DNA from: a virus
Taxonomy: Duplodnaviria > Caudoviricetes
DNA: 64,000 nucleotides
Reading direction: 5' to 3' (one strand)
Virus record (IMG/VR): IMGVR_UViG_2547132519_000001
Span: 1-64,000 of that record
How positions within the stretch are numbered: position 1 is the stretch's first letter; every line of letters begins with the position of its first letter. The notes under the pieces were generated by a model. It ran no database searches, was not told the DNA's origin, and saw only the letters and a list, made by a program, of their open reading frames with translations. Both the position numbers and the translations under genes were made by a program. Below are positions 4,251 to 31,785 of the stretch, piece by piece.

Positions 4251-4292
4251 AAAAATAGGGAATATAAGAGTAGACCCCTCATATTCCCTAAA
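4251..4292 (-). terminator. Intrinsic terminator at end of late tail operon
   Basis: Minus strand TAGGGAATAT...ATATTCCCTA followed by T-run. Confidence 0.7.
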
Positions 4293-4298
4293 TAGTTT

Positions 4299-4828: not shown

Positions 4829-4839
4829 TCAAATCTCCT

Positions 4840-8545: not shown

Positions 8546-8551
8546 ACCTAC

Positions 8552-9445: not shown

Positions 9446-9456
9446 TTATTATCACC

Positions 9457-10518: not shown

Positions 10519-10528
10519 TTATATCTCC

Positions 10529-11329
10529 TTATACAAGATCTGTAGGTGTATATATTACAAGGAACATTGCCGAAAACAAACCGCCGCAAGAATAATCATT
10601 ATGGTTGAACCACCTTACTCTAAATTCAATTCCGTCAATCTTAGTAATATCAATTGTAACGTTAGCTGTATCGCAACCAATAGGTATAAATATAGCATTG
10701 TTACCTATTCCACTAATATTACAAATGTATGATTCTTCAGTATATGATCCTGGTTCAATAGTATCTACATTATCGTTGACTTGGTATATTTCAAATTTCT
10801 TAAAATAGTTATTAGATACGTTTTTTGTATAATAACGGGAATCGTGATCTTTCGAATCTGCTTTTTTATGTAAGTCAAACACGGAAGATGAGATCTTATC
10901 GTTTAGGGCTGTTTGTTGCTTAATTGAAATAGGCTTATCTTGATCTGATGTATTGTTAACTTTCTCTAAACCAATATTTTCAGCAGTAATATTAACATTT
11001 CCATTTCTATAAGTTGTTTCTGAATTTCCTTTTACTCCAGTAACACCAGACGTTGGTAAGTTATCTTTTGTGTATGTATTGGATTGTATGTACAACTCAT
11101 TCCAATCATTACCTGGAGCACATACCCAGACCATATCTTCGATATTAACATTACCATCACACTTTACAACATAATCTTTGCCCTTGTATAACACCTTACA
11201 CTTCTTGGTTGATAAATTATCAATAACCTTAGCGCGAAATGTTTTGTCATACTTTAATGAGTCTGCTTTTATGCTGAATAAATAATTAAGATCTTCGGCA
11301 ATTTTTTTATATACATCTTGAAAATTCAA
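10529..11329 (-). CDS. Tail protein (OB-fold-like N-terminus, fibre-like repeat)
   Basis: GVTGVKGNSETTYRNGNVNITAENIGLEKVNNTSDQDKPIS fibre-type segment. Confidence 0.65.
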   Translation of the reverse strand: MNFQDVYKKIAEDLNYLFSIKADSLKYDKTFRAKVIDNLSTKKCKVLYKGKDYVVKCDGNVNIEDMVWVCAPGNDWNELYIQSNTYTKDNLPTSGVTGVKGNSETTYRNGNVNITAENIGLEKVNNTSDQDKPISIKQQTALNDKISSSVFDLHKKADSKDHDSRYYTKNVSNNYFKKFEIYQVNDNVDTIEPGSYTEESYICNISGIGNNAIFIPIGCDTANVTIDITKIDGIEFRVRWFNHNDYSCGGLFSAMFLVIYTPTDLV

Positions 11330-11345
11330 TTGTTCACCATCCTTT

Positions 11346-11369
11346 TAAGGGACTCTTATTAGAGTCCCC
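11346..11369 (-). terminator. Hairpin downstream of tape-measure stop
   Basis: GGGACTCT-AATA-AGAGTCCC perfect stem; weak U-tract. Confidence 0.45.
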
Positions 11370-11371
11370 AA

Positions 11372-14300: not shown

Positions 14301-16531
14301 TGGGATAGAAGGTTATCTAAATTGGCTTTTTGTGTGTTAGCGTCAAAAATATCGCCAGCTTTGGCTTTATTATAAGCTACAAGAGCACTAGTCGCTGAAC
14401 CAATCGTATTAATTAGTGCTATTGCATTCTCAATGTCACCACTCGTATCTAAGATTGTACCGTTTGCATTAGCTTTTTCCAACGCAAGACCAGCAAGTGC
14501 TACTTTTGCAATATCACTTTGAGTTGCTTCATCAATTAGCCCTGGTATTTCGCTTGCTGTAGCATTAGCAAGTGTGTCACTCATTTCTGCTGTATACGCC
14601 TTTTGTGCTGCTAACTGTTCTTGTGTGAAAGCAAGTCTAGATGCCACAACCTCTTCGGCGTTAGCAACACCCATATTTTTTAGCATTGAGGAAATTAAAT
14701 TAGTGTTTTCTTCTGTATAATCGTTTAGTGCGAGTTTACTATCAATCCATGCAGTAGTCAAATCATCAAAAGCTGATTGTGCACCCTTTATGTCCTTGGG
14801 AGAGTCAGATATCGTTTCGATAAAATTGGTATATGATTCACCTAGTTCACCAAAGCTGTCCTTGAAATTTTTATCATCTAATAAGGCGAAGTCAAATGGA
14901 TTCTTGCCCTTCATACTACTCATTATTTTATCCAAGGACTCAAAACCTTCTGAAAGAGAATTTACATTTGATATTACTTCTTCTTTAGATATAGCTAAAG
15001 ATTTTTGACCTGAGTCGCCAACATCACCTTGTACAATATTTAATTTTATTAATTGATCTATGACTTGATCAACTGATAAACCATACTTATCTGCGGCAGC
15101 TTTTAATTTATTAAATACATCATTATTTTCAGCATCATCCATAGCTAGTATATCTTCTTTAGATTTTCCTCGTAAAGATCCTACTATGGTCATGAGATTA
15201 TCTTTATTAGAATTAAGGTCGTCTGCAAAATCATATATACCTGTGTCAGCCTGATTAAATACTTCATTCATAACACTGGCATATTTCTTCCAGTCGGAAC
15301 TGGTTAAATCTATAGTATCTTTAACTTTATTAAGATCATCTCTTGCAGATAAAATCTTCTTTTCATCTCCAGAAGCAATGGCATCATTATATTTTTTAAC
15401 AGCGCTTGTAGCATCACTATACCCTACCGATAATTTGTCGCTCGTAGCTATTTGTGCCACCAATGCTTTATTATAAGTGTCTCCATAATCAGCAATTAAG
15501 TCTTTGGTTTGATTGAGAGACGAACTTGATATGCCAAGAACAGATTTTATGATAGGATCTTTTTCACCATATTTTTCTTTTAAGCTGTCAACGTAGGTCA
15601 TAAAATCATTGATTGCCTTATTAGCTTCAGTGGGGTCAGCACTAAGTCTCAAAGAAAAGGTGCCAGTAGGTGCATATACATCGGGATTTTCTAAATTTAA
15701 TTCATCCTTGTGTGATCTGGCATAGTCAAAGATTGCTTTTCCTGAACCGGAGAACATACCAATATCCTGAGCCACCATGTAGGTTTTCTTTTTAGTCATT
15801 TTCTTTTGAGCTTTATCAATTGTATCTACATTCTCATTTAAATACTTTTGGGCAGCAATTTTATTTAGTTGCCTGATTGCCTCTGTTTGATCTTTATATG
15901 CATCTGTCACAAGATTAAGCCGACCATATTCGTCTCCATATTTCTCATTGAGTTCTTGCTGAAGGGAGAGGAGATCACTCTTTATTTTATGTTGTTCTTC
16001 TTCTGACGTATTGGCATTTGTTAATTCATCATGTAATTTTGAATATCTATTTGCATAATCATCTATAGAACTTGAAACTTCGCCATATGCTTGCGCTGCT
16101 TCGGCAGTTGCTTGTCGAGCTTCTTCAACAGATTGTTTATACTTACTCCATATACCAATACCAGCAGTTACGGCCATTCCAATTAGAAGTAACGGGTTTG
16201 CCATCATTGTAGCCCAGAGACCTTTTAATGCAGATGTAAAACCAGCGGTAGAGAAGCTTGCGCCCTTTTGAGCAGTAGACAATGATGATGTATTAATTGC
16301 AGCTTCAAGTTCTGCCTTACTTAAACCAGAAACTGTAGTTTTTACACCATTTGCATTTTTCTCGAATATTGTCCCAGATAGTATCAATTCTAACTGTGAT
16401 TGTTTTAACTTTCCGCTAGACAATACGCATTTCTGCATACTTAAATCCAATGAATTAAAATAACTCGCTATATTACTACCACTATTTAATTTGCCTAACA
16501 CATTTGAAAGATTTCCGAGGTCTTTAAGTTG
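11372..16531 (-). CDS. Tape measure protein, 3' exon (1,719 codons)
   Basis: Long helical/coiled-coil ORF with ALKGLWATMMANPLLLIG; no Shine-Dalgarno before the TTG at 16534; in frame with the 5' exon after splicing. Confidence 0.88.
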   Translation of the reverse strand, partial: QLKDLGNLSNVLGKLNSGSNIASYFNSLDLSMQKCVLSSGKLKQSQLELILSGTIFEKNANGVKTTVSGLSKAELEAAINTSSLSTAQKGASFSTAGFTSALKGLWATMMANPLLLIGMAVTAGIGIWSKYKQSVEEARQATAEAAQAYGEVSSSIDDYANRYSKLHDELTNANTSEEEQHKIKSDLLSLQQELNEKYGDEYGRLNLVTDAYKDQTEAIRQLNKIAAQKYLNENVDTIDKAQKKMTKKKTYMVAQDIGMFSGSGKAIFDYARSHKDELNLENPDVYAPTGTFSLRLSADPTEANKAINDFMTYVDSLKEKYGEKDPIIKSVLGISSSSLNQTKDLIADYGDTYNKALVAQIATSDKLSVGYSDATSAVKKYNDAIASGDEKKILSARDDLNKVKDTIDLTSSDWKKYASVMNEVFNQADTGIYDFADDLNSNKDNLMTIVGSLRGKSKEDILAMDDAENNDVFNKLKAAADKYGLSVDQVIDQLIKLNIVQGDVGDSGQKSLAISKEEVISNVNSLSEGFESLDKIMSSMKGKNPFDFALLDDKNFKDSFGELGESYTNFIETISDSPKDIKGAQSAFDDLTTAWIDSKLALNDYTEENTNLISSMLKNMGVANAEEVVASRLAFTQEQLAAQKAYTAEMSDTLANATASEIPGLIDEATQSDIAKVALAGLALEKANANGTILDTSGDIENAIALINTIGSATSALVAYNKAKAGDIFDANTQKANLDNLLSQRTGLGMSMAIDNQLNAYQEKMDKLKADADKQVQDAINTSRNYQGKGASANYAGANKSNKAGSGSDKKKKEDSQNEVDWIARKTKLMQDEYSKLEELANKDTVAYLGLTQEQFDKAKSIFDNGLGNTFEGLSELQSYADKAGLSLGELYTMIQSGAPGASKENALQGMLKMQTETLLPQYQQEVEAYSKAYADALKAIPSEYKDKIENGGIEIESLPSDLGKKVQTAIDANEKLKASQKQLADGETEHIKTIKDLHENRISAINTENEKLEQSNKIIKSQMELMEARGEIIDADFYKQQKNNNKGLISGNEQDIAEWESEMADLRAAKVSVKSKDYKELQAKVKAAKNEIQGLRIEQEEINQALEQMPIDNLNTIVSMYKDISSAIEKWGDVASATGGKLSADYYQTLISNGATTIDQYQDLASEIKNVMDEQEKGSTRWNELYGQLQSVNSEMSSMVQNLKKWNEELLKMPLDNINNYSSELQKVTDGLSGVKEEYDTVISAVTGAIKEQIDAINEQKDAVNEEYNAQKKALQDKLDLMNKQNKELQLQLKYEQALYNLQKANQQATEKVIRDGQVVYEQNADKLRDAQEAVQSAKFDMETDKIQTQIDELQETLDGLNDKYQDQIDSLQKISDKWSEISEKITQAQNEAKANDLLGVGWKDKVLSGKDVELFNNFSGMYANTAEQLRQYQEQINNTNNIYSLLEDYISSYKEGTLSYDQALTGINNLLAQMNQTMSAEGNLQNIYDYLGAMNGTAANAENVLSGIKQGLANTATELIDSFKQYNQNAGIISEYTSSWQQLTDNVASMLDVLEEVRDNLENASEDDDDDEDGAPFRKDSSGYVNSGPGVGGKAYKNGIENGLVGTSSTSDREAKMKLLGLKKMDQDEISAILHRNEAVFNPEQQDTLLKNLATAWKITPSKTDYSTFSPNRPNITTQEFKFGNINIQECNDTEGLANGILSGGLKRAIIQQSGIR

Positions 16532-16557
16532 CAATTAAATTAATTAGTAAGTATAAT
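16529..16557 (+). promoter_or_regulatory. Sigma70/SigA promoter for zinc-ribbon gene, overlapping the 3' splice site
   Basis: TTGCAA (16529-16534), 17-bp spacer, TATAAT (16552-16557). Confidence 0.7.
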
Positions 16558-16577
16558 ATATTCAATATAAAAAATTC

Positions 16578-16994
16578 TTGGAGGAGAAAAATATGGCGCT
16601 AATTGAATGTCCTGAATGTGGAAAGCAGGTTAGTGATACTGCAAACGCTTGTCCTAATTGTGGGTATGATATAAAGAGTTTTGTTGAGTATTGCCCACAT
16701 TGTGAATTACTTGATAAAGAAAAGATACTAATGAGTTTTTCAAGAGATCAAAACGTATACACTTGCCCAAAGTGTAACAGAACAATGGGTGTTGCTTCTC
16801 CAGAAGCAGAAGCTAATTGGGCAGCACAGAGACAAATGGAACAAAATCTTCCCAAATGTCCATATTGTAGTTCTACCAATTTGAAGAAAATTTCTGGTCT
16901 ATCTAAAGCTGGTAGTGTAGCTTTGTGGGGTGTTTTTGCCATGGGTAAAGTAAGCAAGCAATGGCATTGTAATAGTTGTAAATCAGATTTTTAA
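16578..16994 (+). CDS. Zinc-ribbon protein with hydrophobic segment (true start probably ATG 16593)
   Basis: Six CxxC pairs; GGAGGAG RBS before MALIECPECG. Confidence 0.85.
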   Translation: MEEKNMALIECPECGKQVSDTANACPNCGYDIKSFVEYCPHCELLDKEKILMSFSRDQNVYTCPKCNRTMGVASPEAEANWAAQRQMEQNLPKCPYCSSTNLKKISGLSKAGSVALWGVFAMGKVSKQWHCNSCKSDF

Positions 16995-17091
16995 TTTATA
17001 TGATAATTCAATCTATCTGAAGTAAATTAACTTTGCTTAATTCATCTATTTCATTTTGTAGTTTATTTATATTTTTATCTAAAGTTAAGTT

Positions 17092-17134
17092 ATAAAACAA
17101 AAAAGGCCTTATTTAAGACCTTTTTTTGTTTTAT
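17092..17134 (-). terminator. Intrinsic terminator inside the intron (bidirectional, stronger on minus strand)
   Basis: Minus RNA AGGUCUUA-AA-UAAGGCCU-UUUUU within a longer inverted repeat, between convergent genes. Confidence 0.75.
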
Positions 17135-17140
17135 AATATT

Positions 17141-18034
17141 TTATTCGATTTCACTATTTAAATTATCAAATGTCTCCGATCTAACCATTTCTGAGCTTCC
17201 ATCAGCGGACGACATACAATGATATGCTTGATTGTTAGTCATTAATATGAAGCTTATGATGGTTTTCTTATCATAGTATGTACTATTTCCTTCCACAGCA
17301 AAACTCAACATTTTTCTTTCGCCAGGACTGATAGTTATGGAGTCTAAATTTATTACCGATGTTGATCCTGCTTCTACAAGTTTTAAATCGCGATTTAAAT
17401 TACTATAATCATGATTATATAATTTGGCGAATTCACTGTATATAATTACATCATTGTCACTATTATTTTTATATTCCATTACTATGTATTTGGCATTGGG
17501 GTTAGTTTTGGTGTTCATGTATACCTTATACTTAGGTATATTATTTGTCTTGTTAACCCTTGCTCCGTCATCACCATAATAAGCGCTGTCCTTAGCATAG
17601 CAATTACGTAGCATATATCCATCTGTACCTACCCAGTACCATTTTCCATTGACTTTAAGATCTGTATTTTTCGGGTATGAGCCATCTGCATACTGATACC
17701 ACCAACCATTTTCATCTTGTCTCCAGCCGTCAGAATTATAAATAGAAGAGTACATATCATTATTTAAACTGTGTCCCATGATTGCTCCGTCGGAATCAGT
17801 TTGATACCCGTTAAATAACTGTGTATTAGGCAATAAGTATCCATCTTGGTTAGTGTAATATAATTTCCCTTCCTTTATGAAAAAACTACAAGTTGGGTAC
17901 GTTCCATCGTTATATCTATACCATGTTCCAACATTATCTGTTGCCCAAGCCCCCATATATACTGTTGCATAAGAAACTATTGTACAATTAAAAATAAATA
18001 ACATAAAAATAAAGCTAGTTAGTATCTTTTTCAT
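17141..18034 (-). CDS. Secreted protein with cell-wall (choline-binding-type) repeats
   Basis: Signal peptide; GWRQDENGWWYQYADGSY and KWYWVGTDGYM repeats. Confidence 0.85.
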   Translation of the reverse strand: MKKILTSFIFMLFIFNCTIVSYATVYMGAWATDNVGTWYRYNDGTYPTCSFFIKEGKLYYTNQDGYLLPNTQLFNGYQTDSDGAIMGHSLNNDMYSSIYNSDGWRQDENGWWYQYADGSYPKNTDLKVNGKWYWVGTDGYMLRNCYAKDSAYYGDDGARVNKTNNIPKYKVYMNTKTNPNAKYIVMEYKNNSDNDVIIYSEFAKLYNHDYSNLNRDLKLVEAGSTSVINLDSITISPGERKMLSFAVEGNSTYYDKKTIISFILMTNNQAYHCMSSADGSSEMVRSETFDNLNSEIE

Positions 18035-18088
18035 GTAATTTACTCCTTTATCTCTTTCATTTAATAGGATCTACTCTCTGGCGTTCAA

Positions 18089-18775
18089 TTATTCCTCTAT
18101 GTGAAAACGATACAATTTCTTAGCCGGGATTATCCGATAGTATGAATTAACGAAAGAATCGCAGCTAACTGTGAAGTTTAAGGTTGTATTTTCATTGACG
18201 GAAAATTGCTGATATTTACCTACCATAAATATGAAGTCAGTACCTTGGCTGTTTGCTGGAACTATACCATAATCGCAAGGTGTAAAGGTATTCGTATCAT
18301 ACATGAGCAATTTTTTTATCATTCCGTCAGTGTTTACTTCAACAACTGGATCTATAACAATATCCTCTTTCCCTTCATTTATAAATCTACACAGTATTAA
18401 ATCACTAGTTTTTTCTTTTGATCCAGTGGCCCACACAACACTAAAATTTAGACCAGGTGTATTATCTTCAAGTACTCGTCCATCTGCGTCAACTCTGTAT
18501 CCCTCTGGAGTTGTCCAATTATAGGTTAAGCTACCATCAGTGTATAAGTAATGCTTTATGCCATTAACCTCAATAAGTCCGGTTTGCATATATCCATTAG
18601 AATCGAAGTGATATTTTTCTTCGCCAATGGTTAACCAATCGTTCTTAACATAACTACCATCATCATTCTGATACCACCAACCCACACCATCCTGTTTCCA
18701 TTCTCCAGCAAATGATACAATCGTACTGCTTATAGCAATAGTCGCTGACATTAGTAACACAAGTAACTTTCTCAT
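18089..18775 (-). CDS. Secreted protein with cell-wall (choline-binding-type) repeats
   Basis: Signal peptide ending SFA; GEWKQDGVGWWYQNDDGSY, YHFDSNGYMQTG. Confidence 0.85.
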   Translation of the reverse strand: MRKLLVLLMSATIAISSTIVSFAGEWKQDGVGWWYQNDDGSYVKNDWLTIGEEKYHFDSNGYMQTGLIEVNGIKHYLYTDGSLTYNWTTPEGYRVDADGRVLEDNTPGLNFSVVWATGSKEKTSDLILCRFINEGKEDIVIDPVVEVNTDGMIKKLLMYDTNTFTPCDYGIVPANSQGTDFIFMVGKYQQFSVNENTTLNFTVSCDSFVNSYYRIIPAKKLYRFHIEE

Positions 18776-18804
18776 ACAAATCCCTCCTGTAAGCTGTTTT
18801 ATGT

Positions 18805-18813
18805 ATTATAACA
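18805..18813 (-). promoter_or_regulatory. Extended -10 promoter for the cell-wall-binding genes
   Basis: TG-T-TATAAT about 30 nt upstream of the ATG at 18775. Confidence 0.55.
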
Positions 18814-18864
18814 TGGAGAGAGTATTAATTCTATAAAAAGAGAAATTTAAGTATTGGATTTAAA

Positions 18865-19332
18865 CTATGATAACTCTAAACGCTCATATAATTCACATAA
18901 AGCTACTTGGACATTCGTGACTCGATCACTTACTTCGCTAATAGTGATAGGTTTTAAACCATCATTAGAAGGAAACTTTGAAATTAATTCATCAATTTCC
19001 ATCTTTTTAGTATCATCTAACTCATAGTGATATTTGGTTTCATAAGTAATTTTATCTACTGGCTCTATATCGATATAATCAACCATTTCTGTGTTGAATT
19101 CACCAGTTTCAATTTCTGACTCATCTAAAATGGGAATTTTAATTTCTCTTTGTTTTTTGACCTCTTCATTGACTGTTATTTTGTTCTCAATTACTTCTGA
19201 TACAATCTTATATGCAGTGTAATAAATCTGTTCACCTTCTGGTAAATTTTCCATTGGGATCGAATTATCAAGATCACCAACTAAACAATAATTACCTGTT
19301 AAATAATTATTGCTATCTATCTGAACTTTCAT
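18865..19332 (-). CDS. Hypothetical protein following tail fibres (possible assembly chaperone)
   Basis: 155-aa acidic ORF with GGAGG RBS; C-terminal VQVALCELYE. Confidence 0.7.
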   Translation of the reverse strand: MKVQIDSNNYLTGNYCLVGDLDNSIPMENLPEGEQIYYTAYKIVSEVIENKITVNEEVKKQREIKIPILDESEIETGEFNTEMVDYIDIEPVDKITYETKYHYELDDTKKMEIDELISKFPSNDGLKPITISEVSDRVTNVQVALCELYERLELS

Positions 19333-19344
19333 GTTAAAATCCTC

Positions 19345-20928
19345 CTATGATTGATACGTTTTATATTTGATACCTACGACTTTTGTTATATGAGATTGGG
19401 TTTGACTGATAGAGAGACTGGTATGTGTTGAGGTAACAGGAAGAATGTTAGTATAAGCAGGAGAAGTCTGATACCCAAAAAGACATGATATATAAGTATT
19501 AGTTGGCTTTAAATCTATAAGTGGTATTATCTCATCTTTAGAAATTTCCTTATAATCATAATGTTTTGCCGATACATTATTTATACTATAAAAATAAACT
19601 CCCAACTTATCATAATTGTTTATAGAATCTAATAAATTAATTGTATTAGAAACTGCCGTAGTACCATCTGTTCCTATATTGCCTTCAAATAATACTGTTT
19701 CTTCTATTAAGCCTTGAATAGACATGAAATATGTAGGTTCATACTTTATACAAAATAAAACAGCAGTATTCGTGGGTCTGGAGGTGTATACTGTTGGTTG
19801 ATTTATAAACCCGCTAGTGGTTATCCATCTGTTTGATCCGCCTATTTGGGAAATATATATACCTTTAGAGCTGTTAATTGTATTATCAATATTACTAGGT
19901 GCAGCTCCTCCTGTAGTTAAATTTGATCCAATCCAAAAATCATTAAGATTGGCATTTGTTGAAGTATAAAGATAAGGATATATTGTACCACTTTGATGTA
20001 CACCGATCTCCTCAGATAATTTTTCTACTTTATCTCCATGGTAGCCCCGTATAAACTCATTTCTCAAATCTGGCAAAGCAAAGGTCGCGGTTCCATCTCC
20101 GCCAAAGAAGTTAAAAGTGCCAAACTGATCCTTTATATATTGAGATAGGTGTGGATAGTCTGTAATATTGTGAACAGAACCATCGCAAACGAGATAGTGG
20201 CTCGGTGCTGTCTTACCCATTACAGATATAATATTACCAACTGGGGTATCCTCAATGCCTTGGGTAGTGTTAATATAATTTACTGGGTCGATAGTAACGC
20301 TTTCTATGTTTATTCCTTTAATAGAAGTTATGGATACCTTGTCTACCTGTGAGATACTAAAAGGATTATTGACCCCGTCTATATGTATTACAGTAGGAGA
20401 CTTAAACCACGCTCTTATACTCATATGTGCTCCACCCCAAGAGTTAGTAACACTTGTTGTAACGTTATCCATTAAAAAAAGAACTGACCCATCTGACGGA
20501 GAATATGTATTTGTATTATTGTAAACTATTTCAGTAACATTGAGCATATTTAATTCTGACTTAAATTTATAAGTGGAATCTACAGCAAATTGAACACTAA
20601 TTATATTATAGTTTTCTATGCTTTCTTTTAATGGAATATCTATATTAATTGATGTAAAGACAGGAGAACCGTTATTTGCTGGAATTGTAACAGGAAAAGT
20701 AAATGTAGAACTCAATAATTCCTTGATTCCTCTCGTATTTACAGTTTTCTGTGCTATACTTATATCATCCATAGTTTTTACTGCATCTTGTAATCCAGTA
20801 ATAGCTGATATTGGATGTGAATCCTCAGCATCTCTTCCAGGAATAGAATTATGAGTACCTGCTATAGTTTTAACAAATTTTTTAACACTATCAACTGTAA
20901 CACCTAAATTTGTTTTATTGATTCCTAT
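19345..20928 (-). CDS. Tail-collar fibre paralog 3 (frame extends 52 codons upstream of 20772 to an ATA)
   Basis: Tail collar motif PVGNII...YLVCDG...FALPDLRNEFIRG; extension IGINKTNLG...HPISAITGLQ matches paralog 2; RBS GAGGTGAG. Confidence 0.8.
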   Translation of the reverse strand: MGINKTNLGVTVDSVKKFVKTIAGTHNSIPGRDAEDSHPISAITGLQDAVKTMDDISIAQKTVNTRGIKELLSSTFTFPVTIPANNGSPVFTSINIDIPLKESIENYNIISVQFAVDSTYKFKSELNMLNVTEIVYNNTNTYSPSDGSVLFLMDNVTTSVTNSWGGAHMSIRAWFKSPTVIHIDGVNNPFSISQVDKVSITSIKGINIESVTIDPVNYINTTQGIEDTPVGNIISVMGKTAPSHYLVCDGSVHNITDYPHLSQYIKDQFGTFNFFGGDGTATFALPDLRNEFIRGYHGDKVEKLSEEIGVHQSGTIYPYLYTSTNANLNDFWIGSNLTTGGAAPSNIDNTINSSKGIYISQIGGSNRWITTSGFINQPTVYTSRPTNTAVLFCIKYEPTYFMSIQGLIEETVLFEGNIGTDGTTAVSNTINLLDSINNYDKLGVYFYSINNVSAKHYDYKEISKDEIIPLIDLKPTNTYISCLFGYQTSPAYTNILPVTSTHTSLSISQTQSHITKVVGIKYKTYQS

Positions 20929-22189
20929 TTAACTCACCTCCTTAGTTTTGAAAAGTTTTATATTTAATACCTGTTATTTTAGTTACATATGATTGATACA
21001 TTAAGAAATTTAAGTTTGAATAACTAGAAGTTTTTTCTATATCCGCAAAACTGATATGCGGACTTTGCCCCCAGTTAAGAGTTAGATGGGTATCAGGTTG
21101 CAATGATTCTATTAAATCTTTAAATCTTTTTGATGGAAAAGAATTATAATCAAGTCTTACTGCCGTACCTATAGAAGCTTGATAATAAAAACCTATTTCA
21201 TCATATTCCAAAACAGAAGTGGTTAAACTTATAGACCGCGATACTTGAGTTGTACCGTTTGTTCCCACAAGTCCCTCCCATAGAATAGTATCTTCTATAA
21301 GACCTTGTATAGACATAAAATATGTAGGTTCGTATTTAATACAATACAATACCGCTATGTTGGTTGGCCTGGCTGTGTATTTACCAATTCCGGTTGAAGA
21401 CCAATTCTGAGCTGAGGAGTTTACAAGCCACCCTGTATTATTTGTTCCTTGTATTATCGAATCCATATTGCTTGGAAATTGATCTGCGGAATTATAATTT
21501 GAGGTAAAAGCGACTTTAGAGTTACCTGTATATAAAAAAATATTTTCAGTAGGATTTTGATGAATGCCAATCTCACCAGATAATTTCTCAGTTTTACTTG
21601 CATGATATCCACGTAAAAACTCATTTCTTAAATCAGGTACTGCAAAGGTAGAAGTACCGTCACCACCAAAGTAATTAAAGCTTCCAAATTCAATTTTAAT
21701 ATGTTGAGCTAAAAATGGATAATCTGTTATATTATAAATAGCCCCATCACATGTGAGATAGTGAGATGGAGGGGTCGTACCCATATATGAAAGTATATGT
21801 CCTACAGGTGCATCTTCTATGCCCTTATCGGAATTTACGTATTCAACTGGATCTACTATTGTTTTTTCCATTTCTAATATATTCAGATATGATGTATTTT
21901 GAAGTTTTGCTCCTGTTTGAGTTCCTCCTATAACTGTTACTTTTATACCAACTTTAATATCTGTTTTTGGTGTAATAACGCAAAAAGATGGTAATATTGC
22001 TTGATTTATAGTAAGCGCAACATAATCTACCGTCGTGCTAATTGACTTTTTTTGCTGTAAAATAAGGACAGTTGGAGTAATTCACTCTAAGTTCTGTTCT
22101 TGAACAACAAAGGTTGTAGCATTTCACTGCTATTTTACTTCAAACTTTTGTATCATTTTACTCCATATTTTCTTGGAGGATTTTAAAAT

Positions 22190-22555
22190 ATGACAAAAGC
22201 TCAAAAAGATGAATACTGGATGGATTGCATCCAGCAGTGCCGCGTAAGCGGCTTATCTGATTACGCCTGGTGCAGTCAGAATGGTATACCTACCAGCTCT
22301 TTTTATTACAATATAAAGCGGCTGAGGAAGAAAGCCTCTATGATTCCTGACTCTGTTCCAAAAGTTCTAGAGAAAACAGAAGTTGTACCAATTCACTACA
22401 ACGAACTGCAAGAAACAAAAGCAGTTCTTCCTAAAAAACAAACGGATCGGATTGCAATCCATCTGGAATACAATGGCTTTGTTTTGGCTATCAGTAACAA
22501 TGCAGATGCCGCCATTATTACAGCAACATTAAATGCGTTGCGACAACTGTGCTAG
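22190..22555 (+). CDS. tnpA: IS66 accessory protein TnpA
   Basis: SGLS..AWC..NGI..SSFYY HTH; first IS66 ORF. Confidence 0.88.
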   Translation: MTKAQKDEYWMDCIQQCRVSGLSDYAWCSQNGIPTSSFYYNIKRLRKKASMIPDSVPKVLEKTEVVPIHYNELQETKAVLPKKQTDRIAIHLEYNGFVLAISNNADAAIITATLNALRQLC

Positions 22556-22902
22556 GTGATCTCTCCGGCGTGGCAAAGATATTTCTTGTGGCCGGCTACA
22601 CCGATATGAGGCGTAGCATAGACGGTCTTATGGCAATTGTCCGGGATACCTATGAGTTAGATCCTTTCAGTAATTCCCTTTTTCTTTTCTGCGGAAAAAG
22701 ATGCGACAGACTGAAGGCACTGCATTTTGACAAAGATGGTTTTGTGTTACTTTATAAACGGTTAGATTCCGGCCGTTTCCAGTGGCCACGTAATTCAGAA
22801 GATGTTAGAAATTTGACCAGACAGGAATTCCGTTGGCTTATGGAAGGTCTTTCTATTGAGCAGCCAAAGGCAATTAAACCCGTTGCCAAAAAGCCCTTTT
22901 AA
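22549..22902 (+). CDS. tnpB: IS66 accessory protein TnpB
   Basis: TDMRRSIDGL, LFLFCG, DGFVLLYKRL..GRFQWP. Confidence 0.93.
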   Translation: MLGDLSGVAKIFLVAGYTDMRRSIDGLMAIVRDTYELDPFSNSLFLFCGKRCDRLKALHFDKDGFVLLYKRLDSGRFQWPRNSEDVRNLTRQEFRWLMEGLSIEQPKAIKPVAKKPF

Positions 22903-22990
22903 GCATCTGATAAAGTACACGCAGAACCGCTTATTTACTGGCTTTGCGGTCTCCTTTGTGGTATAATAAGTATATCATTCAAGGAGGTAC

Positions 22991-24592
22991 ATGGTCATGA
23001 AAAAGTCTGTTGAAACCGAAGATCTTAACATGAATCTGCTGGTCAGTAATCTGCTCAAACAGCTGGAAGCAAAAGATCATCAGATGGAACAATTAAACCA
23101 GACCATTGCAAACCTCACGGAAACAATTAATGAACTGAAACGAAAAATCTTTGGTATTTCCAGTGAGAAATCATCGAACTTACCTTACATTGACGGACAA
23201 CTCAGCTTGTTCGATCAGTTGGGAATTGATGAACACGTTCACGAACCGGAAATGATCAATGTGACAGCGCATGAGAAGAAAAAATCCCGTGCTACGCATG
23301 ATGAACTTACAAAAAATGTACCGATAAGGACCATTGAGCTTTTACTGGAAGGTGATTCTCGTAACTGCCCTTACTGTAATACTAAAATGGAAGATATCGG
23401 CTCCAAAGTTGTTCGTGAAGAGATTCATATCACTCCAGCAAAAGTGGAACGTGTCCAATACGTACAGCATAGCTATGCATGTCCACAGTGCCGTGAAGAT
23501 GGTGATTCAACCATTGAGAAGGCACCTGTGCCAAAGCCACTCATCAATCACAGTATGGCTTCTGCTACAGCGGTCTCTTACATCATGTATCAGAAGTGTA
23601 CGAACTATCTTCCGTTTTATCGTCAGGAGCAGGATTGGGCACAGCTGGGAGTCAAGCTGAATCGTGGAACCATTGCCAGCTGGTTCAATACATGCGCAGA
23701 AGAATATCTGGAACCCGTTTATGAGAGATATCATGAGTATCTTCTTAGGCAGTCCGTCATTCATGTAGACGAGACGACATGCCAGGTTTTGAATGAAGAT
23801 GGCAAGACTCCAGAATCAAAGTCTTACATATGGTTGTACACCAGCGGTGCATTTGAAGAGCACCGGATTGTGCTTTACGAGTATCAACCATCAAGGGGCG
23901 GCTATCATGCAGCAAAGTTCCTTGCTGATTATCACGGGTTTGTCCATACGGACGGCTTCAGCGGATACAACCGTTTGAGTGACATTACCCGATGCGGGTG
24001 CTGGGCACATCTTCGAAGATATATGTTCGAAGCGATTCCCAAGAAGAAGGGATCATGCTCCGAAAAATCTGAAGCCTACACAGGCTATTCCTACTGCAAC
24101 CAACTCTTTCAGATAGAGAAAGAACTGAAAGACTTAGAACCAGAAGAGCGACAGAAAAAGCGTCTTGAACTGGAGCGACCTGTACTGGATGCATTCTGGA
24201 AGTGGGTGAATGGGATAAATGCCCTTGGCGGATCAAAGCTTGCCAAGGCAATTAACTATGCCCAAAACCAAAAATCGTATATGGAGAATTACCTCCTTGA
24301 TGGAAGATGCTCCATTAGTAATAACGCAGCTGAAAGAGCCGTGAAATCATATGTTATGGGAAGAAAAAACTTCCTCTTTCATGACACTGTAAAAGGTGCC
24401 AAAGCAAGTGCAATTGTTTACACGCTTGCAGAAACAGCCAAAGCAAATGGATTAAACATCCGTCTTTATCTGGAAACAGTTATGACTAAGATGCTGGACT
24501 ACAAAAATGAGCCCGATAGTATCCTGGAAGAACTGATGCCTTGGTCAGAAGCAATGCAAAAATCCTGTGGCTTGAATAAAGGTACTATTTGA
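22991..24592 (+). CDS. tnpC: IS66 DDE transposase TnpC
   Basis: Coiled coil, zinc finger, HVDET, HTDGFSGY, CWAHLRR, SNNAAER. Confidence 0.95.
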   Translation: MVMKKSVETEDLNMNLLVSNLLKQLEAKDHQMEQLNQTIANLTETINELKRKIFGISSEKSSNLPYIDGQLSLFDQLGIDEHVHEPEMINVTAHEKKKSRATHDELTKNVPIRTIELLLEGDSRNCPYCNTKMEDIGSKVVREEIHITPAKVERVQYVQHSYACPQCREDGDSTIEKAPVPKPLINHSMASATAVSYIMYQKCTNYLPFYRQEQDWAQLGVKLNRGTIASWFNTCAEEYLEPVYERYHEYLLRQSVIHVDETTCQVLNEDGKTPESKSYIWLYTSGAFEEHRIVLYEYQPSRGGYHAAKFLADYHGFVHTDGFSGYNRLSDITRCGCWAHLRRYMFEAIPKKKGSCSEKSEAYTGYSYCNQLFQIEKELKDLEPEERQKKRLELERPVLDAFWKWVNGINALGGSKLAKAINYAQNQKSYMENYLLDGRCSISNNAAERAVKSYVMGRKNFLFHDTVKGAKASAIVYTLAETAKANGLNIRLYLETVMTKMLDYKNEPDSILEELMPWSEAMQKSCGLNKGTI

Positions 24593-25110
24593 TTTTTCGA
24601 GAGGTGAAAAATCCAGAAAGATCAATACACTTCTTTATGTAGCGCTTACGATTTATACCATTAGCACATTCACAAACTCCTGCTTTACCAATTACTTTAG
24701 AATTTGTATAATCATATAAACAATAATACATATAGCCTTGGTAAGATATTAGTCTTACCAGGGCTTCTATATTGTAAGTGACATTGGCCTTTAATGTATA
24801 TAATTTAGTAGTTTGATCATAATCAATACCATTATTTACTATTGGAATAAATGGTATTAATAAATTCACTACAGGAGTATAATCTAATGCATCTGTAACA
24901 CTTGATAAACATTGAGAAAGCTTTTGATTTACAGTTCTCTGTGCAACATTAATATCATTAACCTTATTTATTTCGTTTTGCAATCCGGTAATAGCTGATA
25001 TAGGATGAGCATCGATATCATCTCTCCCGGTAATCGCGTTATGAACGCTGGGAATTTTACCTGTAATAAAGCTTTTAATGCTTTCAATCGAAATACCTAA
25101 ATTTGTTTTA

Positions 25111-27504
25111 CTAATTCCCATTTAATATACCCTCCACAAATTCTTTGATTTCTGAATCGGTATATGTGGTATCGTCTCCTCCACCTGTTGAAGAAGTTGA
25201 TCGGTATCTAATTCCAATAACTTTATCTAACCGAGATTGATATTGATTTAAATCTAATCTATGGCTGGTAGAAGTTTTTTGTATATCTGTATAATCAATT
25301 ACATTAGAGTATCCCCAAACTAGCGAAATAGAATGATTTATATTTGTACTATTTTGGCATTCAATGATTTGACTAGGGTATATCTCCTTATATTGTGGAC
25401 GTAAAGAACCATCTGATCTTGTACAAGTGAAGAGAAAACCTAATTTATCATAATTTGTAAAAGAGTCTTTTAAGCTAATTGAATTCGATACAGCTGTTGC
25501 CTTGGTGGTTCCGACGTTACCTTCCCATAACACAACCTCATCCACTAAACCATTAATATTCATAAAGTATGTAGGTTCATATTTAATACAATAAAGTACA
25601 GCAGTGTTCGTAGGACGAGATGTATATAGTTTATTACCTCCACCAGCCCAGTTAGACACAGATCCATTATTAGACCATCCTCTAACCACAGTGGATTTAA
25701 TTAAATTGTCTGGATTTTGAGTAGACAAATATTTTCCATATTCTCCATCCATATATATTCTAGAATTCCCATCAACTAAAAAATTTATATGTTGAGTTCC
25801 GCTTTGATGAATTCCAATTTCTCCAGATAACGGTTCGGTTTTATCTCCATGATAACCACGAAGAAATTCATCTCTTAAATCTGGTACAGCAAATGTGTTA
25901 GTACCATCTCCTCCAAAAAAATTGAATGTTCCAAATTGGTCTTTAATATGTTGAGAAAGATATGGGTAATCTGTGATATTATAAGATTGACCATCACAAG
26001 TGAGGTAATGCTTAGGTGAAGTTTTGCCCATCTGTGGTAGAATACTGCCAACTGGAGTGTCCTCTATGCCTTGTGTGGTATTCACATAATTTACAGGATC
26101 AATGGTGACGTTTTCAATATTAACTCCTTGCACAGATGATAGCACAACATTAGCCCAATCTGTTGCTGTAGATGGAGTGCTTGCATTAAATAAAAATAAA
26201 TGAGTTGCATCTTTAAACCAGAAACTAAAAGACGCACTAAAGCTGCCCCATGCTCCTGCTGTTGTAGTTCCTTGTATTTTATTAACATTCATGGCAGAAC
26301 CATTAGTAAAATTTAAAACCTCAGAATTATTAAAAACTATACTAGATGTTTTAAATGTATAAATAGGATAAGAAATTTTAACAGTATTGGTGTTTACTTT
26401 TAGTTGAATGTTAATCATATCATAATTAAGAATACTATCTTTAAGCGTAATTGTCTGATTTATTGCTGTAAGATTGGCCGTCCCCATGGTTAAAGCTGGA
26501 GTTAGATTAAACGAATATTCTTGACTCAATAGTTCTTTAGTGCCTTTCGTATTTACCGTTTTTTGCGCTATGCTAATACCATTAGTAAGTTCCTCAACTA
26601 CAGCTATATCATATGATATTTTAGTACTGCTCCATGTTTTTGATAATGAAGTTACGCTATCATCTATAACTTCAGAAGTGCCTCCAACGGCACTCAACAC
26701 ACCATTACTATCTACAAATGTGGTTGAATTATCAGGCTTAACACCACCAAGTACATTAGGAGAAGCACTTGGAAGGGTGTAGTTATTTAATCCGGCAAGT
26801 TTCGACTTTTCGTCAGTAGAAAAATTATTTTGAGATAATCCATATCCTGAAACTTTATCTACTTTATTATTTAAAAATGAGTCTGTTTCTACTTTTGAGT
26901 AATAATTGGTTAAATCAATATCTGTGGTACCTATATTTGCCCATTCGTTGTTTATGTAAAGCCACTGGTTGTACGAATTTTTATCGATTTCCTTTTGTAA
27001 GTACATAGTTGTTGCTGAGATATTTTCTGATGGAAGAATCTCTATTACCTCAATAGTCATTGAATTTAAATTTGCAATTAATGAATTAATCTCGGTCTTT
27101 GTATAAGATTCCATCTTACTATAATAGTTCATTAAGTTTGAAGCAGATATTGTAATAAAATCTGAATCGTTAGTTAATTGAGAAATTAGTGTAGGTATTT
27201 TTGGTTTGTCCTTTAAATCATTATAGCTTCCTGTGGAAGCAGCATCAGAAAATCCTAACTGTTTGGATGTTATATTCCCTACCAATTCCACTCCATTGAT
27301 TACCGGCCTGTTATAAAGAGATTCGTAATCACTTGCGCTTCCAGAAACAGTTTTATAAGTTCCATCGTCAAATAACGCTTTGTTTCCTTCGCCATCAGAA
27401 GTAAGCTTTTGAATATTTTCTTTTTGATCTGAGGTGATAATTTCCTCAGCAACTTTGTCTGTATAACTCTTACCCGCGGCTAGAGTTGTTAAATCAATTC
27501 CCAT
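25111..27504 (-). CDS. Tail-collar fibre paralog 1 (797 aa)
   Basis: ASTGSYNDLKDKPKIPT and LPSASPNVLGGVK fibre motifs; collar PVGSIL...LTCDG...FAVPDLRDEFLRG. Confidence 0.85.
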   Translation of the reverse strand: MGIDLTTLAAGKSYTDKVAEEIITSDQKENIQKLTSDGEGNKALFDDGTYKTVSGSASDYESLYNRPVINGVELVGNITSKQLGFSDAASTGSYNDLKDKPKIPTLISQLTNDSDFITISASNLMNYYSKMESYTKTEINSLIANLNSMTIEVIEILPSENISATTMYLQKEIDKNSYNQWLYINNEWANIGTTDIDLTNYYSKVETDSFLNNKVDKVSGYGLSQNNFSTDEKSKLAGLNNYTLPSASPNVLGGVKPDNSTTFVDSNGVLSAVGGTSEVIDDSVTSLSKTWSSTKISYDIAVVEELTNGISIAQKTVNTKGTKELLSQEYSFNLTPALTMGTANLTAINQTITLKDSILNYDMINIQLKVNTNTVKISYPIYTFKTSSIVFNNSEVLNFTNGSAMNVNKIQGTTTAGAWGSFSASFSFWFKDATHLFLFNASTPSTATDWANVVLSSVQGVNIENVTIDPVNYVNTTQGIEDTPVGSILPQMGKTSPKHYLTCDGQSYNITDYPYLSQHIKDQFGTFNFFGGDGTNTFAVPDLRDEFLRGYHGDKTEPLSGEIGIHQSGTQHINFLVDGNSRIYMDGEYGKYLSTQNPDNLIKSTVVRGWSNNGSVSNWAGGGNKLYTSRPTNTAVLYCIKYEPTYFMNINGLVDEVVLWEGNVGTTKATAVSNSISLKDSFTNYDKLGFLFTCTRSDGSLRPQYKEIYPSQIIECQNSTNINHSISLVWGYSNVIDYTDIQKTSTSHRLDLNQYQSRLDKVIGIRYRSTSSTGGGDDTTYTDSEIKEFVEGILNGN

Positions 27505-27559
27505 TTATTATGTTTCACCTATATCTTTCTGGTTTATGATATTTTAAAGGTAAGTTAGT

Positions 27560-28005
27560 CTTCATATCTTATACACGTTGGAACATGCATTAACAGCATA
27601 TGAAATATGGCTTTCATGTACTGCGAGGAATGGTGCTCTCTGAACATTCCCTATCATTAATGACTTTACCCCAACATTGCTTACGCAATTGCTACTATTG
27701 GATTATCTGTCATGACTGTACGTAGATAGGGTTAGCTGCTTCGTTAGTGATTGTAAATCTGTCGGGAATTATGTTTTATCCCTAGAAAACTCACTCCGGT
27801 GTGTTAACCGTTTGACTTATTTGCCTTATTTTTCGGCTTCTCCAAATAGGAGAGTAGTGAGTATTACACTTTCAAGCAATTAATCCTCTTTTTATTTTAA
27901 AACTTTCATCTCTAGGAATTGTTGTGTCGCCATTATGACATTTCCTTCCCCTAGATAGGCCGACTTAAATCCTCGGAAATTTAAGTAACTCGTTTTACAG
28001 AGTTA
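27560..28005 (-). ncRNA. Group I ribozyme core (P1-P9 5' strand)
   Basis: P element AAUUGCUUGAAAG (27881-27869), Q CGAAGCAGC (27743-27735), R GUUCAGAGAGCA (27645-27634), S AAUGCAUGUUCC (27591-27580); P3, P4, P6a, P7, P8 all pair. Confidence 0.9.
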
Positions 28006-30042
28006 ACCGTAGTTTTTTACAAATGATGTGATACCTGCACCAGTTAAAAGCGTTGACAGCACTCCAAAATTCTTTATAACTCCATCTAAGCCACTGGATA
28101 GTGCAGTGCTAGAATCAACAAGGATTTTTAAGAAATCAGAGTTTAAGACAGTTAAAGAAAGTGATTGGAATGAGGCTTCAAATTGCTTGGTCTTTGCATC
28201 TAATGATTCCATCCATCTTTCTTGTTCTTGCTGAGCACTCCCAGCAGAGTTTAATGATTCCTGGAGAGCCTTTCCAACTTGTCCAGATTGAAACGACTGT
28301 AAAAGCGCCATAACTTGGTTACCGCGCTGTTTTCCTGCTATAATTTCCAGCAAGTCTGCTTGTTTAGTTTGACTAATATGATCCCATACTTCTGAAATTC
28401 CTTTAATAATTTCATATGTAGACTTAAAATTACCTTTGTCATCGAAAATATTAACTGCTCCATCAGTACGATTTAAGATTTGAGTCTGTATTTTTGATAT
28501 AGACTCAACGTTTTCGTATTCTTCCCCTAACTCCTCTAGGTTACCTTTCATCCCACGAACACGCATACTTAATACTTTTAAAGTATTTCCCATTTCAGAA
28601 GCGTCTTGTATAATCTCTGAGCCACCAGTTAGCATGGCTAATGTCTGATTAATATCATTTCCAGCCGATTGAAGAGCAGAAGCGGAGTTTTTTAAACCGG
28701 TACCTAAACCTGCGGAATCAACTGCAAATTTGTTTCCTAAAGCATTAAGCGAGTCAACAATATTAATACTATTTGAAGCTTCAATATTAAAAGCTTTCAT
28801 TGCGGTTACTAAATCGGAGACAGCCGTTTTGTCATCAACTTCTCCAACATTCGCATATATAGATGATATTTTAGCTAGTTCAGACGATTCATCTATGTCA
28901 TATCCTAATTTTGCCCAATCAGCCGTCTGCTCTACTAATCCAGATATAGTTCTGCCTAAGTCTTTGGCGTTTTTCTTTGCACCATTTAAGAATTGGGCGT
29001 ATTTGTAATCTGTCTCGTCCGTAACTTTATAAAGATTAGTCATCGCTGTATCTACTTCGTAAACTGACTGATACATCTTATGGAAAGAGTTTGCTCCAGC
29101 CATAATGACGGATGTTATAGACAACCATGAGGTGAACTTAGATCCTGCATCTTTAATTGAGTCCGTAAATGATTTCCCTAACAGCCCGGCCTCTCTTGCG
29201 GAGATTTGAATTCTCATAAATTCAGCTTCGATCTTTTTCAATTCTGGTACCGTCAAATCGTCTGCTGATTTTAGTTTTTCTACCAACTGATTTATATCAG
29301 AGCCGTACTTCTTACTAGCTTTAGAATTGTTTTCCATCCACGTAACTATGTTGCCAGCTTTTGTTAGACGTTGTGTTTCGGAAGCAAAACCTTTAAAATT
29401 AGCTGTTAGGTCTTTGAGTCGATTATTTACTTTTGAATACTCTACATCTAGACTTTTTGCATTAGCAATTAAAGAACTACTGTCGGGGTTTGCTTTTAGT
29501 TTCTCGAATGCAAGATTAACATTTAGTAATTCTTTTTGTATTTGATCTGCCGATAAACCGAGCTGCCGAAAAGATGCAGTCATTGTTGATATTTTTGACT
29601 CGTTCTTTCCAACATCTATTGCCTGGGAAATTTTCGATGCTGAAGCAGCTGCCTTATCTGCTTCTATAGATTCGCGTCTATACATATCAGCCATTTGCTG
29701 TAGCTCTGATGATTTTGACCCAATTGACTGATATGTACTTTTTCTTAAGTCTGCAAAAGATTGTTCAACAATCTTATTTTTTTTAACAACTTTCTTTGCT
29801 TGATCTTCATAAGCTTTAAATATGTCGTTTCCATTTAACTTTGTACCAAATGTTTTATTAAAATCACTTGCTATCTCTTGAGATACTGCTTTCAATTGAT
29901 TGCGGAGAGAAGCGGTTTTTAATTCAGGAATAATATCAATTGAATATTTATTGATAATATTTTGGACTTCCTTCAATTCTGTATTTATACCTGATTTGTC
30001 TAATACTGTCTGTAATAGAACTTTAAAATCAGTATTTGCCAT
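28006..30042 (-). CDS. Tape measure protein, 5' exon (TP901-type core, 679 codons)
   Basis: VDTAMTNLYKVT, MGNTLKVLSMRVRG, FKSTYEII, IAGKQRGN; GAAAGGAG RBS before MANTDF at 30042; ends ...NYG then in-frame TAA as first intron bases. Confidence 0.9.
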
Positions 30043-30091
30043 TACGTTTCTCCTTTCAATGCATAAAAAAAGAACGGAGTTACCGTTCAAA

Positions 30092-31338: not shown

Positions 31339-31785
31339 TTACTGATTTAAGTTTACGATTATTTCAGTACGTGGGTTTTCTTTATCAACATAACACTCCA
31401 ATGTTAAAGATGTAATATGTTTATTGTCATCATCAACAATAAAACCACTTTCGGATAATCCATCTAAGATGAATTTAGGACAACCATTATCTATATCGTG
31501 TCTGCGATTAGTTTCATAGTATGTAATAAATTTCATTTCGCATTTTTCTATGTGTAGGTTAGAATAACCTTGGTTTTCAATAAACCATTTTATGAAATCT
31601 TTCCATTTTTGCTTTAATGCATTCATCATAGGTCGCTTCATTATCATCCAAGTATTTATTGTAGGGTGATAGGGCGCATCAATGGGCCTTTTACTTGCTC
31701 TTGAATGTAGTTTGAAATAATATTTTTCGTACTCCGATAGAGTAGAGTTGTCAATTACTAATTTTAGTTTTTGTATATTAATCAC
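31339..31785 (-). CDS. RusA-like Holliday junction resolvase
   Basis: RRHDIDN..KFILDGL....IVDDD, PRTEI motifs. Confidence 0.8.
   Translation of the reverse strand: MINIQKLKLVIDNSTLSEYEKYYFKLHSRASKRPIDAPYHPTINTWMIMKRPMMNALKQKWKDFIKWFIENQGYSNLHIEKCEMKFITYYETNRRHDIDNGCPKFILDGLSESGFIVDDDNKHITSLTLECYVDKENPRTEIIVNLNQ

Follow-up and report, generated by a model that had tools for sequence, protein, structure and literature searches.

A probable 11.5-kb group I intron with an intact ribozyme core and a distant 3' splice site in the tape-measure gene of a Lachnospiraceae-type prophage

The first 64,000 nucleotides of the virus record IMGVR_UViG_2547132519_000001 (IMG/VR; Duplodnaviria, Caudoviricetes), referred to below as the window, contain a phage tape-measure gene that is split on the minus strand by an element of 11,474 nt, and this element is very probably a group I intron with an intact ribozyme core, in which some 10 kb of accessory genes lie between the core and a remote 3' splice site. 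Splicing of this 11.5-kb form is something we infer from its intact signals and from the existence of shorter relatives. The source record is a 134-kb provirus with minus-strand structural genes and a completeness rating of 82%, and the host of the prophage is of Lachnospiraceae type. In what follows, W denotes the intron copy in the window, while L-numbers and G-numbers denote contigs or records of homologous loci; the coordinates of all features are collected in Table 1.

The interrupted gene is recognised from two open reading frames (ORFs) that match the family phrog_4211 colinearly, one after the other (positions in Table 1), and that therefore look like a single gene cut in two. The upstream ORF (28003..30090) runs into the element and ends at a TAA (28005-28003) that is the first codon of the intron, while the downstream ORF (11372..16534) encodes 1720 amino acids, so that the two exons comprise 695 and 1719 open codons, and the frame is preserved when GGU is joined to CAA (...AAC UAC GGU / CAA CUU AAA...). 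An intron-less homologue, L068, crosses the predicted junction without extra residues, with 62.6% identity in the N part as far as residue 694 and 52% identity in the C part from residue 3 onwards. Among relatives of the tape-measure N part, which were fetched from viral contigs, the gap between the N and C parts is 4.4 kb in L002 and 1.1 kb in L007, and both break at the same residues as W. The stretch between the W exons begins with about 430 nt devoid of ORFs, followed by the cargo ORFs, an IS66 element and a plus-strand Zn-ribbon ORF that adjoins exon 2.

The non-coding RNA stretch that follows exon 1 is conserved, with 88% identity in L002 and 69-80% identity in L014, L013, L006, L007 and L008; the similarity of relatives to the W core ends at about 27570, and a motif scan added more copies. 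In a pattern scan of genome contigs, 11 of 69 matches were true homologues by BLAST and the others were due to chance. The genomic carriers are Lacrimispora, Enterocloster lavalensis, [Clostridium] asparagiforme, a Lachnospiraceae bacterium, Clostridium sp. and Clostridia metagenome-assembled genomes (MAGs); the cultured ones include Lacrimispora sp. HJ-01 with a member of 3.9 kb, Clostridium sp. HBUAS56010 with one of 6.6 kb and Lachnospiraceae bacterium 54-53 with one of 3.6 kb, and the predicted junction of such relatives reads GCU|CAG or GCU|CAA. The W core had no DNA match among 50,697 phage records. A 121-nt stretch in L135 (1154-1272), on a contig labelled as a Methanobrevibacter MAG, matches the 3' part of a W-type core at 77% identity, and may reflect either contamination of the bin or a distant relative.

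An alignment of 13 sequences (A2) was used to derive the secondary structure, for which RNAalifold gave most helices, while P1 and the pseudoknotted P7 were added by hand. The resulting core has 89 pairs in 17 helices, of which 97.7% are paired across the 13 sequences, whereas sliding the partners lowers this to 36-45%; both sides are altered in 36 pairs, and the observed values were reached by none of 500 shuffles. W itself retains 87 of the 89 pairs and its relatives 81-89. The core includes the P3/P7 pseudoknot, with one P3 pair present as G-C in seven sequences and A-U in six and the P7 closing pair, which ends at 27580, as G-C in eight and A-U in five. The G27638-C27581 pair in P7 is invariant (13/13) and adjoins the bulged A27639; by analogy with Tetrahymena P7, this pair may be the guanosine-binding site. 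Only three nucleotides (J7/3; CCA, 27633-27631) separate P7 from the 3' strand of P3. Alternative partners for P7 (a local GGAAUG/CAUUCC, GGGAA/UUCC and GCA/UGC) were rejected, either because they conflict with P3 and P6, both of which covary, or because covariation does not support them.

The core also pairs with exon 1. P1 has the form of an exon G-N-U opposite G-N'-C and is only 3 bp long; its U.G pair is found in 13/13 sequences and it covaries, the pair at position -2 being A-U in nine sequences, C-G in two and G-C in two. A second pairing with exon 1 involves a strand located after P2, where the column pair 41:164 is A-U in six sequences and G-C in six, and the exon-1 binding strand is thus split by P2.

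The 3' end of the intron is placed at G16532, the base before exon 2, by three indications: the P10 pairing, the reading frame and the intron-less homologue. This base had been proposed as omega-G in the first-pass annotation of the window, an assignment that these indications bear out, and a G precedes exon 2 in all 14 introns with a mapped 3' end. It lies 11,046 nt beyond the end of P7 (27580), which upholds the further claim that the 3' end of the ribozyme is far from the core. A guide hairpin (27985-27964) stands just 5' of the guide's P1 strand, and together with the adjoining UCG (27963-27961) it can form a P10 duplex of 17 bp with the start of exon 2, at -21.5 kcal/mol. Over the 13 kb that follow the core no target is better than this site, the background there being -6.4 kcal/mol (standard deviation 2.5; 13,000 positions), and in the whole window a single target scores better, which lies upstream on the transcript. 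Across the family, the start of exon 2 is the top guide target in 12 of 24 rows scanned (6/13, 3/8 and 3/3 by set), a count in which some rows are the same element in two collections and three have too little downstream sequence. Guides prefer the exon 2 of their own clade, with values of -21 to -29 for the guides of W, L002 and L036 on their own targets as against -5 to -18 on others. Judged by these predicted pairings, it is the covarying P10 that matches the remote 3' end, and at about 17 bp it is much longer than is usual for group I introns.

Under the proposed mechanism, a group I intron with a 428-nt core of P1 to P8 and a P3/P7 pseudoknot would interrupt the prophage tape-measure gene. 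Exon 1 would be held by the 3-bp P1 with its U.G pair and by the second strand after P2, while the distant 3' splice site would be specified by omega-G together with the unusually long P10, in which the loop and 3' strand of the hairpin 5' of the internal guide sequence would anneal to the first 19 nt of exon 2. P7 would be followed by a local P9, degenerate in W, and the long linker from P9 to the 3' splice site would serve as the gene store of the intron family, in small members housing a single antisense Zn-ribbon gene and a promoter for it.

Table 1. Features of the predicted intron, its exons and its cargo in the window
Feature	Position	Strand	Remark
Predicted group I intron, 11,474 nt	16532..28005	-	5' splice site after U28006; omega-G 16532
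Ribozyme core, 428 nt	27578..28005	-	pair counts on 13 homologues
P1	28008-28006 with 27960-27958	-	
P2	27955-27911	-	
P3, GAGGA with UCCUC	27888-27884 with 27629-27625	-	
P4	27879-27875 with 27740-27736	-	
P5 arm (extended)	27861-27790	-	
P6 arm (extended)	27731-27649	-	GNRA-type loop GUAA 27684-27681
P7, G(A)GAGCA with UGUUCC	27640-27634 with 27585-27580	-	
P8	27624-27593	-	
Second exon-1 binding strand, AAGUUU	27900..27905	-	pairs with exon 1 at 28015-28011
Guide hairpin CUUAAAU-UUCCGAGG-AUUUAAG and 5' part of internal guide sequence	27961..27985	-	P10 formed by loop and 3' strand with exon 2
P10, exon-2 side, CAACUUAAAGACCUCGGAA	16513..16531	-	complementary to guide
Weakened local P9 hairpin, GAUAU/AUAUC and AAG/UUU	27538..27568	-	alignment A4
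5' arm of stem proposed in first-pass annotation	27564..27574	-	overlaps 5' strand of local P9
3' arm of stem proposed in first-pass annotation	16551..16561	-	overlaps -10 box on opposite strand
Exon 1, tape-measure N part, 695 aa	28006..30090	-	PF10145 (PhageMin_Tail) and phrog_4211 positions 557-948
Exon 2, tape-measure C part	11372..16531	-	phrog_4211 positions 955-1674; colinear with intron-less L068
Cargo overall	17141..27504	-	
Tail-collar fibre ORFs	25111-27504, 24585-25121, 20942-21871, 19345-20772	-	
155-aa ORF	18865-19332	-	
Choline-binding-repeat ORFs	18089-18775, 17141-18034	-	
IS66-family element (TnpB_IS66, DDE_Tnp_IS66), bounds approximate	22010..24650	+	Pfam
IS66 ORFs	22190-22555, 22549-22902, 22991-24592	+	
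Palindromic terminator-like hairpin	17090..17136	.	between convergent cargo genes and Zn-ribbon gene
Sigma-70-like promoter TTGCAA-17-TATAAT of Zn-ribbon gene	16529..16557	+	10/12 consensus matches
Antisense Zn-ribbon ORF	16593..16994	+	Pfam zinc-ribbon matches; alignment A5

Several observations weigh against a functional group I intron in W. A scan of the window with Rfam at gathering level returned a tRNA only, a scan of the core by E-value gave Intron_gpI (RF00028) at 10.9 bits with an E-value of 8.2, where the gathering threshold is 50 bits, and no intron match was found by Rfam in seven related loci. The pairing of the guide with exon 2 is weaker in L014, L013 and L006 (-13 to -16 kcal/mol), where exon 2 is not the top target, and the mapping of exon 2 leaves out L052, L043, L100, L077 and L080. 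The terminator-like palindrome stands in the path of the transcript to exon 2. The local P9 of W is weak (5+3 bp) and absent from the minimum-free-energy fold, and W could therefore need another closure. The IS66 element splits a cargo gene, so the prophage may be decaying.

In an alternative, the intron is real, while the W copy no longer splices; with 10.5 kb of cargo, an internal terminator and an IS66 insertion in the way, the tape-measure gene would be split for good and the prophage defective. The internal palindrome, the degenerate P9, the 82% completeness of the record and the IS66 element within a cargo fibre gene would all fit it, yet the core keeps all but two of its pairs, P1, omega-G and the 17-bp P10 show no damage, and both exons are open. 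Furthermore, the record G001 keeps related cargo (76-91% DNA identity) in a tape-measure gene of which both parts are open, and the family includes members of 3.5 to 6.6 kb, of which one resides in a complete phage. The IS66 element itself is a separate, later insertion: it splits the second fibre gene of W, the homologue of which is whole in G001, and the alignments on either side overlap by 8 bp, the pattern expected of a target-site duplication. A W copy that has lost splicing is thus considered unlikely, though it deserves to be taken seriously.

A different reading of the 3' end was put forward in the first-pass annotation, where the cargo was placed in the loop of a bipartite P9 (27574-27564 with 16561-16551) whose 3' part was a module of about 30 nt, with P9.0 formed by AA and UU. 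The letters and coordinates on which it was built are correct (AA 27579-27578, which does follow P7; TT, or UU, 16534-16533; G 16532), and the pairing of GTATAAGATAT/GUAUAAGAUAU with ATATATTATAC/AUAUAUUAUAC exists, with 10 of 11 positions Watson-Crick and arms near P7 and omega-G. The match is, however, at chance level in W. With the 42 nt that follow P7 and the 60 nt that precede omega-G in random order, a 10/11 match arose in 14.3% of 300 shuffles; the duplex energy of the stem is -10.9 kcal/mol (z -1.3), which 11% of shuffles equalled; and when the 30 nt after P7 were slid along the intron, about 650 of 10,977 30-nt windows paired with them better than those containing the 3' arm. The 11.1-kb stretch holds 82 inverted repeats of at least 14 nt, and its two ends are joined by none of the 25 longest; no terminal inverted repeat was found in the W linker.

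Nor does the stem recur in relatives. A duplex between the sequences after P7 and before omega-G is significant in none of 12 relatives, the fraction of shuffles as good ranging from 0.077 to 1.0. A search with longer windows (122 x 150 nt) gave long, loop-filled structures at z-scores of -2.7 to +0.9, which say little either way. Read directly from the sequences, the homologous arms of L002 pair at 6/11 positions without compensating changes, while G001 retains the 5' arm (92% identity around it) and lacks the 3' arm. As for P9.0, the AA is invariant (13/13), yet UU precedes omega-G in only three of 14 introns (W, L002 and L055), the others having AU (7), UA, UC, AC or AG.

Both arms can be accounted for otherwise. 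In W, GAUAU (27568-27564) pairs with AUAUC (27542-27538), with three further inner pairs, and the W clade (alignment A4, nine sequences) keeps this hairpin as GAUAUCAACGC...GCGUUGGAUAUU, with 10 pairs of which 86.7% are paired, as against 29-46% when slid. Stable hairpins also occur 10-16 nt after P7 in L014, L013, L006, L008 and L052 (z -2 to -4.6). A local P9 hairpin directly after P7, of which W has a weakened copy, therefore places the cargo 3' of P9 and not in L9. The supposed 3' module consists for the most part of the promoter that serves the antisense Zn-ribbon gene; this promoter sits 36 nt before the Zn-ribbon ATG with its -35 hexamer spanning the splice junction. Its layout is identical in L002, L115 and L067, and 10 of 12 intron tails have a promoter of at least 9/12 matches; AUUAUAC recurs at a fixed distance from omega-G because the -10 box is conserved at promoter spacing.

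That the local P9 of W is weakened makes a replacement closure specific to W conceivable, and an AU-rich stem is described around the ORFs of IStrons (PMC4227781). Given an enclosing stem that a seventh of shuffles match, that is uncompensated in L002 and absent from G001, and of which the 3' arm coincides with a -10 box, the bipartite P9 is nevertheless very unlikely: the proposed stem is a chance AT-rich match, the arms of which belong to the local P9 and to the -10 box, and it is unfit for inclusion in models or constructs.

Splicing in trans has also been considered, in which the transcript from the promoter of the gene itself would stop in the cargo and a second RNA, with the tail and exon 2, would be joined via the P10 guide. 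The 17-bp P10 is unusually long, a terminator-like hairpin lies before the tail, and a weak promoter-like site (9/12) is found on the minus strand at 16994-16966; such promoter-like sites, however, number five, where 3.9 (standard deviation 2.2) are expected from shuffles, and the long P10 is shared by members of 0.9-1.9 kb, where a trans mechanism is unneeded, so that this route appears most improbable. Scarcely credible is the absence of any intron, in which case an inserted block of genes and a conserved leader that codes for nothing would divide two tail genes. Rfam indeed gives no significant group I match, and in several N-part relatives a C part is not detectable within 10 kb, yet pairings that covary link the conserved RNA to the ends of both exons, the helix set of this RNA includes the P3/P7 pseudoknot, and the intron-less homologue is colinear across the junction.

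Returning to the intron in the tape-measure gene, its family varies widely in what it carries. The W cargo amounts to about 10.5 kb of fibre genes, genes for choline-binding proteins and the IS66 insertion. Other members are shorter, with lengths of approximately 868, 896, 994, 1088, 1557, 1676 and 1866 nt at the lower end and approximately 3080, 3494, 3624, 3854, 4410, 6579 and, in W, 11,474 nt at the upper end, and in every member the genes are placed after P9 and before a short tail. The smallest members hold the antisense Zn-ribbon ORF alone, while L036 has one extra sense ORF whose N-terminus resembles, by eye, that of the 228-aa choline-binding protein of W. A gene with an NYN domain is found in L002, L144 and L145, accompanied in L144 by an antirepressor and a helix-turn-helix protein and in L145 by a choline-binding protein. 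G006, a complete phage record (100%) with terminal repeats, carries a 3.5-kb member. The expectation that cargo can change without touching the core is thus supported, since introns of about 868-11,474 nt have their core intact; of the comparison with relatives that had been suggested, the variable cargo was found and the conserved stem pairing was not.

A second cargo-laden element in a tape-measure gene is found in G001 (L066, which is G001:C1:8000-26000; reverse strand, approximately 4290-13400). Its 5' non-coding segment is unlike the W core and has no Rfam match up to an E-value of 1; by its motifs alone it may be of group I. After this segment come roughly the final 55 nt of a W-type core and, downstream, W-like fibre cargo, a portion of the Zn-ribbon gene and a further two antisense ORFs. 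The G001 element looks like a recombinant of two introns. One of its cargo genes is 88% identical to one in L002, and the cargo that G001 shares with W and with L002 therefore indicates that cargo moves between these elements.

It is tentatively proposed that the tape-measure introns of Lachnospiraceae phages form a gene-cassette platform, in which the linker acquires and exchanges accessory genes while the host gene stays functional. The types of cargo on such a platform would possibly comprise receptor-binding fibres, an NYN nuclease, an antirepressor and cell-wall-binding proteins. The platform would work by means of a guide of about 17 nt, carried on a hairpin, that would find exon 2 over distances of up to 11 kb, and the efficiency of splicing could couple tail assembly to cargo expression.

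The antisense Zn-ribbon ORF is the one ORF common to most family members, and a homing-endonuclease domain was not found in it. This ORF and its homologues in L014, L013, L007, L008, L036, L067 and L069 share a conserved motif at their end, CPxCxS..KKIS..K.W.C..C, which spans about 47 aa around a stretch rich in glycine and hydrophobic residues. The palindrome at 17090-17136 is a perfect 15-nt inverted repeat that flanks a stem containing GC, with A and T runs on both sides, and by its appearance it looks like a two-way terminator between convergent genes. In the short introns, an A-run precedes the P9 hairpin (12388-12416 in L013, with equivalents in L014, L052 and L006), and on the other strand this hairpin may act as a terminator of the antisense Zn-ribbon gene, which would give it a double role.

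Other observations concern the surroundings of the intron and related loci. The N-part relatives L025, L028, L029, L030, L031 and L066 are broken at other residues (approximately 392/394, 452/453, 501/502 and 513/530), with gaps of 0.25-1.8 kb, some of which contain ORFs of 282-492 aa, and these breaks are probably further introns at other sites. Among the structural genes of the prophage, just upstream of the tail genes, is an ORF for a RusA-like Holliday-junction resolvase (31339-31785, minus strand), and a tRNA gene (50774-50846, minus strand; 65.7 bits) lies inside the prophage. A skipping-rope RNA match of 39.2 bits is present in the related locus L014 (7375-7441).

Group I introns in phage tape-measure genes, and introns with genes 3' of the core, are already known. 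One such example has been described in prophages of the Bacillus cereus group, where group I introns are reported in tape-measure genes (Tourasse and Kolsto, 2008; PMC2504315), and the likeness lies in a group I intron within the tape-measure gene of a Firmicute prophage. The relatives described here likewise show several insertion positions within the tape-measure gene; in the present family the linker from P9 to the 3' splice site holds from one to about 10 genes, and the W intron measures 11.5 kb.

Another example is provided by IStrons, group I introns whose 3' end carries an IS200/IS605 or IS607 element; the insertion sequence lies downstream of P9.2, an AU-rich inverted-repeat stem surrounds the ORFs, and lengths range from 482 to 2582 nt (Tourasse et al., 2014; PMC4227781). 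On that description, IStrons resemble the present family in having foreign genes past the P9 region and a 3' splice site far from the core, and their AU-rich enclosing stem is exactly of the kind that the first-pass annotation had proposed. The present introns differ in that no enclosing stem is found in W and 12 relatives, that they reach 11,474 nt and that the family-wide ORF is antisense. No genes of IS200/IS605/IS607 were detected by Pfam in the linkers of W, L002 and L144-L146 or in the antisense ORFs of L014, L008, L007 and L013, and since J7/3 is only 3 nt long, there are no P7.1/P7.2 hairpins, unlike in the IA2-type ribozyme of IStrons. L002 was considered as an IStron because its antisense ORFs of 392 aa and 180 aa are near IS605 genes in size, and was rejected when Pfam showed no transposase.

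The T4 sunY (nrdD) intron, on which Michel and co-workers are said to have reported in 1992, reportedly has an ORF 3' of its core and a remote 3' splice junction, the separation being reportedly under 1 kb and the ORF a single homing endonuclease gene. There too, an ORF-bearing stretch in the P9 region reportedly parts the core from the 3' splice site, and short pairings with the core reportedly recognise the 3' end. The present family differs from sunY in a separation of up to 11 kb, in having no recognisable endonuclease and in a P10 of about 17 bp, rather than P9.0, as the signal. A review cites the sunY intron for the sequences that flank its endonuclease ORF (PMC3984707).

In corallimorpharian mitochondria, ND5-717 is described as a giant group I intron of 18-19 kb that contains many unrelated genes, with its cargo in P8 (Chi et al., 2019; PMC6545197). 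The likeness is that a very long gene cargo is tolerated by a group I intron, while here the cargo lies 3' of P9 and in a phage gene. The titles and abstracts of literature on tape-measure, cargo-bearing and giant group I introns contained no phage or bacterial case of such size or cargo type, and at 11.5 kb W would be far beyond the printed sizes of bacterial and phage group I elements in the sources consulted, where IStrons reach 2.6 kb. What would be new, if the 11.5-kb form splices, is that a bacterial or phage group I intron tolerates cargo exceeding its core in size by a factor of about 25, that a 3' splice site is chosen over a long range by pairing of the guide with the exon, not by P9 or P9.0, and that introns are sites of exchange for accessory and host-range genes of phages, where G001, with W-type cargo behind a different intron-like 5' segment, suggests that such cargo moves from one element to another.

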